A stretch of DNA of 64,000 nt, from the NCBI GenBank assembly GCA_965217865.1, contig CBDCJO010000002.1, positions 1,440,001-1,504,000 on the forward strand, given 5' to 3'. Every line of letters begins with the position of its first letter. Positions within the stretch are counted from its first letter, which is position 1. The position numbers and the translations under genes are program-made. Below, piece after piece: positions 13,627-24,454 of this stretch. The notes under the pieces are model-generated. The model saw only the letters and a program-made list of their open reading frames with translations, did no database searches and had not been told where the DNA came from. This stretch comes from Candidatus Latescibacterota bacterium. GTDB lineage: Bacteria > Latescibacterota > UBA2968 > SICM01.

Positions 13627-14836
13627 TCAACTCTGCGGGTTTACCTCTGACAGATATGCAATCAGTTCTGCTCGCTCGGGCGAATCAGGATATATCTCAA
13701 CCCCCACCTTTGCCCACACCAACGGGGTTGTGCCATGCTCATCGTCCGTTGCTTCCGTATCGGCGCCCGCTTCCACGAGTATTCTCGCAATCTCAGGATC
13801 TGAACACAGGTGGAGCGGTGTCTGGCCGGCGCTCGCTCTCGCGTTGACGTCTGCCCCGCGTACGATCAGCATTTCAATCACATCGGCTTCACTGCGATGG
13901 ACAGCAGCGTGGAGCGGTGTGCCCTCGTCAGCGTGAACGCCAATCTTACCTATGAAGTGAACGGTTTCTGGGTCGTCGTCGATGTGATGTGACAGTTCGT
14001 CCAACCTGCCCAACGCTGCAAGTATACAGGGATCGACGGCCGCGCCTTGCTCTAGCATGTATTCCGCTACCGCACGACAAAGGTCACCCCGTCCTATCAT
14101 CGCACCCAGCGGATTGTTACCCATGCCGTCAACTGTGTCGAGTTCTGCTCCATGGTCAATGAGAAGCTTCGCGACGTCTATCGACGTGGCAAAGTGAAGA
14201 GGGGTTCCATCACCGAGGCCCGAACGTGTCGAGGCCTCCGGATCATCCGCCAGGATCGTCGCAACGGCCGAGGCATCTCCCATCAAACAGGCCGCAAAGA
14301 TGTCGACCACTCCTCCGTTATCGCGAAGCAAGTCAGCGACCTCTGTGTGGCCCCAGTGTGCCGCGAGATGAAGCGCAGTCCAGCCCCCGTAGGTATCGAC
14401 ACCGCTATCGGGATCCGCGCCACCCTCCAGCAGTATCCGGACGATTTCCGTTTCGCCTCGCTCGGCAGCAAGTTGAAGCGGTACGGGTCTACCGAAGTGG
14501 AAAAGTGGATGTGACCCACTGTCGTTGACGACATCCGCCTCTTCGGTCAAGGCTTCTTTGACGGATTTCAGATTGCGACCCCAGATCGCAGACCTCAGCT
14601 GCAGTCCAGCGGCTTCCCTTCGGAGCTTAAGGCCAGCTGTCATACCCATAGCTGCGCGACAGCACGAGCTGGGCGTCGGTCAGCTTAGCCTCGTCCCTGC
14701 TGACCGACCGGGGATGGCTCTGGAACTCCTCCTGGGCATCCGGATCACCCGCGCGATACGCCAGGAGAAGGTCTTTGGCTTGTTTCTTGAGCTGACCGAG
14801 GTGGGGACGGCTGGGTAGGATACGATGTGCGGACAT
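13627..14836 (-). pseudogene. Ankyrin-repeat protein with N-terminal LKKQAK helical module; +1 frameshift at ~14628
   Basis: TGG CCT T AAG CTC: removing one T joins ...YGYDSWP to KLRREAAG. Many ankyrin repeats (TALHLAA, GTPLH, GADVNA). Confidence 0.8.
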
Positions 14837-14970
14837 CGCGAACTCCTTTCCATAAGTTACCCGACATCCGCATCTCCGGGTGAGAAAGAGGCTCGCAGAG
14901 TATTTTGGATTTGCGTTGGAACGAGTGGGCTCAAGCCCTTTCCGCGGACTGGATGCGCCTCGAGGCGCTT
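14837..14970 (-). ncRNA. Candidate structured cis-regulatory 5' leader RNA
   Basis: About 134 nt between promoter and ATG, with stems GCGCC/GGCGC, CGCGGA/UCUGCG enclosing GGGC-UUGA-GCCC, and ACCCG/CGGGU; possible pseudoknot and anti-SD pairing. No Rfam family recognised. Confidence 0.5.
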
Positions 14971-14974
14971 CAAA

Positions 14975-15003
14975 AAGATAGCATCGGCTTGACCACTTGT
15001 CAA
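14975..15003 (-). promoter_or_regulatory. Sigma70-type promoter of the ankyrin gene and leader
   Basis: TTGACA-17 bp-TATCTT. Confidence 0.7.
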
Positions 15004-15266: not shown

Positions 15267-15324
15267 TTGACATTATACGGTTGCTAAAGTATATTAAAAT
15301 ATACTAAAATAGGTTAAACTATAT
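15267..15324 (+). promoter_or_regulatory. Sigma70 promoter overlapped by four 10-bp direct repeats (putative operator)
   Basis: TTGACA (15267)-17 bp-TATATT (15290); repeats TAAAGTATAT, TAAAATATAC, TAAAATAGGT, TAAACTATAT at 15285-15324. Confidence 0.7.
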
Positions 15325-15352
15325 TTAAGAACGTGTAACAGGAGTGTCTGCG

Positions 15353-15970
15353 ATGACGCAAGTAGACTACCGCGACCCTGAATGGGCTGCCCAGAAACTA
15401 GGTTTAGAAAAAAACACCATCTACAGATGGCTTCGTGATGGTACGTTGCCGGGACTCCTTATCGGCCGTAGATGGTTGATTTCAGAATCCCAACTTAAAC
15501 AGTTCCTGGAAGAGGAAACCCAACACCAAACCCAACTTCGAAGAATCATAGCATCTAAGAAACCCTCTGGGCAAAAGATCATGGACCTTGCTATCGAAGC
15601 AGCCCGGACGTACCGTCATGACTGGATAGGGCAGGAACACCTCCTGATTGGTTTATCCCAATTGGGAGATGGCATTACGGCAACTCTTGCTGGATGTGGT
15701 GCTGGTGAAGAGAAACTTCGGAACGCGTTAGAATCGGTACTTGACCCCGGTGAGACCCCCACAAGGTCTAAGCCGCGTATGACACCGAGGGCCCGGAGAG
15801 TAGTGGACATGGCTGAGAAACAGGCTAAGAAGCGTGGTGAAAAAAACTATTCGTCTGAGGATCTGGTGCGGGCTATGTTTACCCTCGGCGAAGGAATGGG
15901 ATTTGACCTCCTTCGAACACTTGGCGTAGACGAACAACGTTTCGCTGACACCGCTCAAACGCCTCAGTGA
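15353..15970 (+). CDS. HTH_17 (excisionase/BldC-like) DNA-binding domain fused to a Clp N-terminal repeat domain
   Basis: AAQKLGLEKNTIYRWLRDGTLPG..IGRRWLI, then EAARTYRHDWIGQEHLLIGL and TPRARRVV.MA..QA (two ClpN repeats); RBS AGGAG. Confidence 0.85.
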   Translation: MTQVDYRDPEWAAQKLGLEKNTIYRWLRDGTLPGLLIGRRWLISESQLKQFLEEETQHQTQLRRIIASKKPSGQKIMDLAIEAARTYRHDWIGQEHLLIGLSQLGDGITATLAGCGAGEEKLRNALESVLDPGETPTRSKPRMTPRARRVVDMAEKQAKKRGEKNYSSEDLVRAMFTLGEGMGFDLLRTLGVDEQRFADTAQTPQ

Positions 15971-22768: not shown

Positions 22769-24454
22769 TCATCCTGACGGCAGGTGCTGTTCAAGTAGCT
22801 TTCTGATTTCGCTATTGTCTCCCTTCTTCGCCCAGTAAAGCGGCGTTGCCCAATCCGAGTCGGCTGGGACGGAGGCATCGGCGCTTTGTTCGAGTAGAAA
22901 ACGCACCATATCCCCATTTCCCTTCCGTACTGCTCCTGCCAACGGTGTGCCGCCCCGCTCCAGTTCGATCGCATTGATGTCGGCTCCGTACTCCAGGAGG
23001 ACCTTGACGTTCTCGATGTCGCCCCTTTCGGCCTCCTTGTGCAGGAACGTCCGGCCGATCCAGTTCGGGCGATTCGGATCGAGGCCTGCATCAAGAAGCT
23101 TCCTGACGCACTCAGGATCTTCGGGAAGACATACTCCATAGAAGCCACCCGGCCTCAGTTGGTCTGGCGCTCTAGGAATGCGGCTCAGGACCAGATCGAT
23201 CAGATCGCTGTCCGCTTTCCCGAACAGGTTCAGGAATTCGTACTCGCTGGATTCGTCCAGGTCTCCTGCACGTACGGCCTCCTTCAGTTGATCCAACGAC
23301 ATCGCATACGTTGGCATCCGTGCCCCGAACTCTCTGAGCAGATCCTGCATCGGACCGCAGGCATCCGGGTGGCGGTGTTCGACGATTGTCGAGCAGGTGC
23401 CGGATGAGTCCCCCCCGGCGTTCGGGTCTGCGTCGTTCTCCAGGAGCAGGCGAGCCATTTCGATGTCGTTGCGGGCAGAAGCCTCAAAGAGGGCTAATCC
23501 ACGGGGGGCGAGTTCCTCGGGCCTGTTCGGGTCCGCCCCCTGTTCCAGAAGGAGTTTCACGATGTCGGTGTAGCCCTGTTTGGCTGCGCACGCAAGAGGG
23601 CTCCGCCTGGCGGAATCGAGACGATTGGCCTGTGATGGATCCTCTTTCAATATCTTCTGAATGGTCTCGACGTCGCCGATCGAACAGCCCACCGTGAGTG
23701 GACAGTACGCACCCCGGGCCAGCAAGTAGCCGACGACGATCCATTTGTTCTTGGTGGCTCCATGGTCGCGATCCCAGTAGTCCCCGTACACTGTGTACTG
23801 GACGGGTGTCTGGCCGTCCGCCCGGTTTGCATTGATGTCGACCCCCAGCTCCAGGAACCGGTCGATGAGCCCGTGCTGACGCGTCAACGCAGCCGTGTGC
23901 AGGCCGGTGGTCCCAAAGGCGTTGCTTCGGGTCGCAAGATGAGGAGCTTCATCAAGAACTCGCTCAACTGCTTCTGCATCTCTGGATCTCACGGCGTCGA
24001 AGACCCGATTGAACTCAGGATCGTAGTTGAACCTCTCGGACATCGCCTGTGCCAACAGCTGCTTCACGGTGTCGTACCCACGCTCTTCTGAGACCGCCAG
24101 CAGCTTGTCCCAACTGCTGTACGTGAACCGAGACTGCCCTGGATCCGCACCTCGTTCCAGCAGCAGCTGTACGACGTGGCCGTGTCCCTCACGCACGGCC
24201 ATGTGGATGGGGAACTCATAGGAATGTTGAGCATTAACGAGGGCGGGATCTCGATCCAGGAGGGCCTGGACCCGCTGCATGTCGCCGGCTGCTGCCGTGC
24301 ACATCAAGGCCCAGGCATCGTGTCCGTCCACCGGTTCGACACCGTATACGTACGAGTCCGTCTTCATGTCGCCGGGCTGTATCATACGTGATAGCTTATC
24401 TGCGAATTCGCTATCATGCGAAGAAGCATTTTCGGTCAGTTTTCGTTTGCCCAT
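22769..24454 (-). CDS. Ankyrin-repeat protein
   Basis: Multiple ankyrin repeats (PIHMAVREGH, SPLACAAKQG, GTPLAGA, ATPLYWA). True start MGKRK at 24454 with RBS GAGGAG. Confidence 0.9.
   Translation of the reverse strand: MGKRKLTENASSHDSEFADKLSRMIQPGDMKTDSYVYGVEPVDGHDAWALMCTAAAGDMQRVQALLDRDPALVNAQHSYEFPIHMAVREGHGHVVQLLLERGADPGQSRFTYSSWDKLLAVSEERGYDTVKQLLAQAMSERFNYDPEFNRVFDAVRSRDAEAVERVLDEAPHLATRSNAFGTTGLHTAALTRQHGLIDRFLELGVDINANRADGQTPVQYTVYGDYWDRDHGATKNKWIVVGYLLARGAYCPLTVGCSIGDVETIQKILKEDPSQANRLDSARRSPLACAAKQGYTDIVKLLLEQGADPNRPEELAPRGLALFEASARNDIEMARLLLENDADPNAGGDSSGTCSTIVEHRHPDACGPMQDLLREFGARMPTYAMSLDQLKEAVRAGDLDESSEYEFLNLFGKADSDLIDLVLSRIPRAPDQLRPGGFYGVCLPEDPECVRKLLDAGLDPNRPNWIGRTFLHKEAERGDIENVKVLLEYGADINAIELERGGTPLAGAVRKGNGDMVRFLLEQSADASVPADSDWATPLYWAKKGDNSEIRKLLEQHLPSG

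Follow-up and report, generated by a model that had tools for sequence, protein, structure and literature searches.

The window analysed here, a 64,000-nucleotide stretch of a Candidatus Latescibacterota contig, carries on its minus strand a predicted sigma-70-type promoter (14975-15003), a leader RNA of 135 bases (14834-14968), an open reading frame (ORF) of 69 codons (14627-14836) and an ankyrin-repeat remainder (13627-14626) that is out of frame with it. The promoter-like site, listed as TTGACA-17-TATCTT in the initial annotation and present exactly there, consists of a -35 hexamer (15003-14998) followed after 17 nt by an extended -10 element (TG-n-TATCTT, hexamer at 14980-14975); it has 10 of 12 hexamer matches plus the TG, and its predicted start is at about 14968-14970. 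Among 99 homologous loci, TTG-type hexamers fall 37-39 nt before the first helix (P1) of the RNA in 31 matches and at any other distance in four at most, a peak which indicates that the RNA probably starts at the transcript 5' end. The leader is a whole copy of what we call the class I double-pseudoknot leader RNA, assigned on covariance and on a match to our covariance model R1 (14834-14973, 77 bits, with the window copy itself in the R1 training set). According to a family profile, the short ORF is an N-terminal basic helical module without its last helix, and the ankyrin part (Pfam Ank, E 7e-35) is 96% identical to residues 62-402 of protein P0001. Adjoining the leader locus is a divergent plus-strand gene with HTH_17 and Clp_N domains (15344-15970), which has a TTGACA-17-TATATT promoter-like site of its own (15267-15295) and which contains, on the opposite (minus) strand, a terminator-like hairpin with a T run (15416-15431), some 430 nt upstream of the leader promoter. 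The window holds a second ankyrin-repeat gene (~22820-24388, minus strand), where neither module nor RNA is matched.

The module ORF is ended by one extra base (14629-14630, minus strand), which at 14629 stops the frame after Trp68-Pro69. This frameshift had been placed at the module boundary; it actually lies inside the module, just past the invariant Trp68, so that the final helix of the predicted fold (residues 68-78) is lost. Short-read contigs of four sequencing runs from two studies contain the extra base (X1-X4, one of which may be the assembly source), those of X7, X10 and X11 from three other studies do not, and the contigs of one run break at this very spot. An assembly error was rejected on these data. 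As for the question whether homologues are split at the same codon, they are not: the nearest protein, P0001 (94-96% identical), is a single 402-residue chain, P0001-P0008 are all fused and close relatives lack the extra base. Furthermore, 67 loci with 1 kb of room include five ORFs below 130 residues, none ending at the Trp68-Pro69 codon. The fused homologues, the other end points and the relatives without the base together rule out a programmed +1 frameshift. The frameshift is a real strain-level insertion, and the broken allele probably makes only the shortened module in this strain.

Taken singly, the leader folds no better than shuffled sequence (z -0.83; 39 of 200 shuffles fold as well), so that support for the RNA is comparative. 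In an alignment of 100 model-aligned copies, fitted to the nested helices and not to the knots, 36 pairs in seven helices are 84.6% paired and 31 of them change on both sides; slid controls are 37-54% paired and none of 500 shuffles equals the observed covariation. The covariation for which the initial annotation had suggested searching upstream regions is thus well above controls, and a plain MAFFT alignment of 44 copies gives the same picture (82.3% paired). Across 50 disjoint nearest-neighbour pairs, double changes are compensatory in 20 of 30 cases for knot 1, 8 of 9 for knot 2, 8 of 8 for P3, 29 of 43 for the Shine-Dalgarno (SD) helix and 1 of 5 for the outer pair of P2. The invariance of the core is partly built in, because the DNA search pattern fixed several core positions.

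From its 5' end, the RNA begins with hairpin P1 (14955-14968; 14968-14965 with 14958-14955, loop CUCGAG), whose four pairs are all compensatory and whose mean helix length of 4.32 compares with 3.41 for partner-swapped sequences. Through its loop, P1 engages in pseudoknot 1 (14922-14962), where CGAG (14962-14959) meets CUCG (14925-14922) in the bases following P3; all five model pairs covary, 80.8% of cells are paired and RNAalifold picks three of the pairs. P2 (14941-14953) joins UCC (14953-14951) to GGA (14943-14941), with two inner pairs that are 98-99% paired and nearly invariant and an outer one that is weak. Its loop, GUCCGC (14949-14944), pairs with GCGGAU (14871-14866) in the loop of the 3' hairpin, P5, to form pseudoknot 2 (14866-14949), which is paired in 99.5% of cells and has three compensatory pairs; a fourth compensates in a copy from the same genome (C2:3496472). 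Hairpin P3 (GGGC-UUGA-GCCC, 14927-14938) is 99.2% paired with 26 compensatory changes at its closing pair, and is flanked by invariant unpaired adenines, AA on the 5' and A on the 3' side (alignment columns 43, 44 and 69). P5 (14859-14881), whose loop is the 3' strand of pseudoknot 2, is 58% paired in the model alignment, and a helix of at least 5 bp is possible in 89 of 100 copies. Such low values in fixed columns for P5 and for P1 (67%) stem from register shifts, and per sequence both helices exceed partner-swapped controls. Finally, an anti-SD segment (14892-14884) pairs with the SD GAAAGGAG (14850-14843) in a helix (14843-14892) that is 91.5% paired, compensatory in eight of nine pairs and part of the minimum free energy fold of 66 of 100 copies. 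As predicted from these alignments, all seven helices, with the SD paired, are mutually compatible in one closed state.

With regard to the structure drawn from the single sequence, its three hairpins (14968-14955, 14938-14927 and 14881-14859) are present where they had been placed, and its CUCUUUC segment (14890-14884) is complementary to the SD and belongs to the covarying anti-SD helix. Other elements did not hold. A proposed GCAUC:GAUGC pseudoknot has three of five columns paired in only 28 of 100, 48 of 98 and 22 of 85 copies and a helix length equal to the partner-swapped control (2.67 versus 2.75); the real knots are different ones. A knot that competes with the first hairpin, as had been thought, is likewise not supported, for the real knots are others and all seven helices are mutually compatible. 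We also rejected a CGCGGA/UCUGCG stem, whose 3' arm falls into an unconserved linker of 13-41 nt and which shows no covariation, with a mean best helix of 3.76 versus 3.48 in shuffled linkers.

Rfam 15 gave no match in the window at the gathering threshold and, at a relaxed E-value, chance matches only for the leader and for 15 class I and II loci, so the idea of an RNA outside existing families stands. In the genome the window comes from, a nucleotide profile search with the leader found five further matches, all directly before the same module, and model R1 raises the total to seven copies, each of them before a module start. Seen from the protein side, seven of nine near-complete N-terminal modules in this genome have the RNA, and two modules without an intact RNA keep the basic residues described below. 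Across the phylum, R1 matches 42 of 121 genomes with up to 12 copies in each. A protein-blind DNA pattern run over species genomes yielded at least 120 loci, and a module begins within 150 nt after 107 of the 120 matches listed; of the 13 that remain, 11 show nothing more of the RNA on visual inspection and are apparently chance matches, and two are real RNAs whose module start is broken or cut off. When loci were picked by the model instead, a module was detectable at 23 of 26 among the matches listed. Starting from the protein in relatives, the RNA lies within 60 nt of 32 of 43 module matches and within 1.2 kb of four more; seven have none, one of these following an insertion-sequence-like element and two keeping only the 3' half of the RNA. 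Among the matches listed, the record titles place the RNA in what we take to be roughly ten phyla, and carriers include cultured Bradyrhizobium, Rhizobium, Burkholderia, Variovorax and Streptomyces strains. Viral pattern matches are real in only 1 of 18 cases; an IMG/VR viral contig (L167) that is possibly host DNA carries a real RNA and a module-ankyrin start at its end. In none of these searches was the RNA seen away from module genes, and it always ends at the start codon. Since 20 loci examined by crude ORF calling (47 of 60 neighbour ORFs scanned) had no conserved operon or shared neighbours, the leader appears to act on no gene but the one it precedes. Hence the core of the initial annotation, an unnamed, conserved, SD-pairing leader coupled to an N-terminal module, is strongly supported by occurrence and covariation.

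The module (~75 residues) is itself widespread, its profile collecting 9719 clusters at 50% identity (E 0.001), and the predicted fold of an intact homologue has four helices (pLDDT 86). At E 0.1, Pfam gives no match to the window module. The nearest family, PF20066 (Glyoxalase_8), matches weakly in 7 of 25 members (best E 0.0024, below the curated cut-off), and profile comparison shows the module to be homologous to the N-terminal part of PF20066 (HHalign 96.9%, E 2e-10, 52 columns), which bears out the tie to glyoxalase-associated proteins named in the initial annotation. Structure searches returned no significant solved relative or known nucleic-acid-binding fold (best Z 4.4 and 5.2). In N-terminal copies (n=258), Lys or Arg occupies position 16 in 96% and position 20 in 99%, and Gln56 is kept in 96%. 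Internal copies (n=124) keep Ala55, Ala60 and Trp68 at 94-97% but positions 16, 20 and Gln56 at only 25%, 39% and 27%, and the charge of helix 1 drops from about +2.5 to -0.2, a comparison that is biased because the profile was built from N-terminal copies, that includes only 28-30 internal copies covering helix 1 fully and in which, of 11 'internal' rows taken from RNA loci, four are probably halves of a first module that has been split. Behind class I modules, ankyrin repeats follow in 24 of 30 proteins scanned (out of 64 eligible), with VOC and kinase domains among the others; a scan of 28 of the top 150 representatives adds FliG, Lon-N, a bifunctional nuclease domain and Clp_N combined with a ClpX zinc finger. 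Protease substrate-recognition domains without an ATPase occur in 2 of these 28 and are absent from the window gene, whose cargo is ankyrin. That the fused domains are unrelated argues against a single metabolic pathway. An anti-phage system was considered and rejected, PADLOC giving, for 86 members, three single-member matches near E 0.01. NCBIfam PRK05973, a 'DNA helicase' family that may represent another, third branch of the module, is weakly matched by two of 25 modules (E 4e-4).

PF20066 genes, whose N-terminal ~55 residues are the homologous module, have a leader of the same plan, here called class II. It stands before each of the 11 PF20066 genes that 22 genomes yielded, as a rule downstream of a TTGAC-type hexamer, and was recognised by eye within 215 nt of 13 of 14 further PF20066-type genes. 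Like class I, it combines a P1-loop knot, a second knot to the 3' hairpin loop and an anti-SD:SD helix; pairing reaches 87% across its 40 pairs, with covariation in both knots. The two classes differ in that the window module has an inserted helix and its RNA another sequence and another place for the short-hairpin insertion. There is no Rfam match to class II either, and R1 does not detect it. A class II pattern gave 120 metagenome matches, 11 with too little room; 104 of the 109 others precede a Glyoxalase_8-type module, five have neither type behind them and a class I module follows none, and at each of the 108 class I loci the class I module is the better fit. RNA class and module class stay matched, without a single cross-pairing. 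Among 32 class II proteins, out of 58 eligible ones, the cargo is Clp_N (15), Lon-N (10) or a ClpX zinc finger (4), so that 29 of 32 carry a protease substrate-recognition domain; since these 32, picked for variety, come from one pattern-defined subgroup with many close kin, more weight attaches to the three kinds of domain than to their numbers. In both structural searches, the top match to the class II module is DUF1244/SMc04008-like (PDB 2o35, 3fyb): Foldseek gave probability 0.92, TM 0.57 and rmsd 1.6 over 41 columns at a non-significant E of 0.82, and the second search Z 5.2 and rmsd 2.4 with 47 aligned; against the class I module, DUF1244 ranks third (Z 3.8). DUF1244/SMc04008-like proteins have been described as interlocked oligomers (PMC2954204), and we take the likeness of the modelled folds as a lead only. 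A further class II leader variant with different knot sequences accompanies short stand-alone Glyoxalase_8 genes (L207, L208, L339-L346).

From these comparisons we consider it probable, if some way from assured, that the double-knotted leader is bound by the module of its own gene and so limits its own translation. In such autogenous repression, the leader would pair its own SD in the closed fold, and the basic N-terminal module would bind and stabilise that fold, presumably contacting the RNA with the Lys/Arg side of its first helix (positions 16, 17, 20 and 24) plus Gln56. Given that the SD helix is compatible with the conserved fold, binding would favour the closed state. The locus has the hallmark of an autogenous leader, with conserved structure overlapping the ribosome-binding site of the candidate binder's own gene, and this reading, already raised in the initial annotation, fits best since the module is the only downstream constant, the RNAs are class-matched and the basic residues are kept only in first modules. 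The exclusive pairing of RNA and module could, admittedly, come from linkage alone, because both are adjacent on the DNA. Against this reading also speak the modules without an intact RNA, two in this genome and 7 of 43 in relatives, and the structure searches, which turned up no RNA-binding fold.

Linkage is what a new translational riboswitch would call for, where a small molecule or ion, bound by the knotted core, would lock the SD helix, the module co-occurring as part of a shuffled cassette of promoter, RNA and first domain. The leader has riboswitch-like traits in a covarying, aptamer-like core joined to an expression platform, and the invariant core with its three invariant unpaired adenines also fits a small-molecule pocket. 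OFF-type pseudoknot riboswitches are built in the same way from an invariant core, knots and an SD helix, and the SAM-II and preQ1-II/III riboswitches combine pseudoknots and SD pairing in one closed state, as does our leader; it differs from them in having no Rfam match and downstream genes with no metabolic theme. Those genes share nothing except the module, however, each of the two RNA sequence classes stays with its own module class and the basic residues are retained only in RNA-adjacent module copies, so to our minds a riboswitch is unlikely.

Rather improbable, too, is the reverse sign of control, where a leader closed by default has its SD freed by the module or by client-bound protein (positive feedback). 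Pairing of the SD has a probability of 0.80 versus 0.56 with shuffled upstream sequence, and opening it costs a median of 7.3 kcal/mol even without protein or knots, so that an activator might be needed to turn on a leader whose ground state is off. In the window copy, moreover, a GGAAAGGG segment can capture the anti-SD for only 3.2 kcal/mol. Against this, the GGAAAGGG-type alternative helix does not covary (6.50 versus 6.53 partner-swapped), just 10 of 100 SD-open folds use it, a search for a conserved alternative ON fold came up empty and all conserved helices fit the one closed state. A general factor or condition (heat, ribosome state or a host RNA-binding protein), or a lasting RNP in which the RNA is a subunit alongside the protein, low basal expression being all that the SD helix determines, seems most doubtful: the protease-related cargo of the sister class points to proteotoxic stress and simple repression would not require so elaborate a fold, yet one would expect to meet a general sensor in front of unrelated genes, the RNA was seen only at module genes, where it ends at the start codon, and a U-run terminator at its 3' end is found in 0 of 100 copies.

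Autogenous repression by the module would be new in its RNA and domain parts; the logic has known analogues. ANTAR domains (PF03861) act on leader RNA at a two-hairpin motif and resemble the module in being small, helical and attached to varied partners, with leader RNA as the putative target here; that target is a double pseudoknot instead, and homology to ANTAR was not supported (HHalign 0.3% and 1.6%, against an ANTAR profile of only seven sequences). Ribosomal protein S15 leaders share with ours a structured 5' leader over the ribosome-binding site, before the gene of the likely binder (PMC4137082). Binding is established for S15, whereas the binder here is putative, non-ribosomal and fused as a candidate binding domain to many unrelated domains, and its leader has no Rfam match and up to 12 copies per genome. 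Mycobacterial ClpC2 (PMC10030653) keeps the promoter of its own gene repressed as long as its Clp domain is free of ligand; once ligand is bound, the protein serves as a sponge. Common to ClpC2 and to the Clp/Lon/ClpX-fused members of our families are a protease substrate-recognition domain without a working ATPase and self-repression (putative in our case), and the recruitment of three unrelated domains of this kind (Clp_N, Lon-N and ClpX zinc-binding), fused to modules with no conserved neighbours, recalls ClpC2. By analogy, the sister-class fusions suggest a ClpC2-like self-repressed decoy operating at the RNA level. ClpC2 binds promoter DNA; the operator here would be an mRNA fold, the cargo in the window is ankyrin repeats and release by ligand is our extrapolation. 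The divergent HTH_17-Clp_N gene next to the leader is a DNA-level counterpart of the ClpC2-like design.

With less confidence than repression itself, we envisage the fused part as the input (ankyrin here; Clp_N, Lon-N, ClpX zinc-binding, VOC or FliG elsewhere), so that capture of a ligand or client might make the protein release the RNA and more protein be made, as with ClpC2 at its promoter. A wider and decidedly tentative proposal is that these loci form a large, undescribed superfamily of RNA-operated one-component sensors, in which a portable promoter, a double-pseudoknot operator and its cognate domain, in at least two orthogonal classes, are set on bait domains (ankyrin, Clp/Lon/ClpX, FliG, VOC), and capture of damaged, toxin or phage proteins would lead to more bait.

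No characterised family includes the RNA or the domain, although the latter extends over ~9,700 clusters at 50% identity. Within openly accessible literature we found no paper on ankyrin or glyoxalase RNA motifs and none naming PF20066; among the RNA-motif papers listed, only a plant UTR review mentions 'ankyrin repeat'. Neither 'ankyrin' nor 'glyoxalase' appears in the main text of PMC11109978 and PMC8632094 or in the readable supplements of PMC8632094 and PMC6429828, and supplements of PMC5737381 and PMC11109978 may list the motif. If the module does bind its leader, thousands of proteins now listed as hypothetical or misnamed 'glyoxalase superfamily' would gain a function, and the module would be a new RNA-binding domain offering two natural, apparently orthogonal RNA-protein pairs for translational control. 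Were the RNA a riboswitch instead, it would be a widespread orphan.

Several copies elsewhere merit mention. In the same genome, a divergent seventh RNA copy (C2:3496472-3496596; L175) precedes a divergent module and has a compensated change in a knot 2 pair that is invariant across the 100-copy alignment; another (C2:4457898-4458021) stands before a truncated module, a pseudogene, and a tandem module-ankyrin cluster without RNA (C2:4090614-4094700) is split by a transposase-like ORF. RNAs before broken or truncated genes were also seen at L012, L062, L191-L193, L201-L203 and L206, and broken genes behind so many RNA copies suggest fast cassette turnover or assembly errors. At L398 (3457-4977, minus strand), an ECF-type sigma factor fused to ankyrin repeats lies directly downstream of a module-ankyrin gene.
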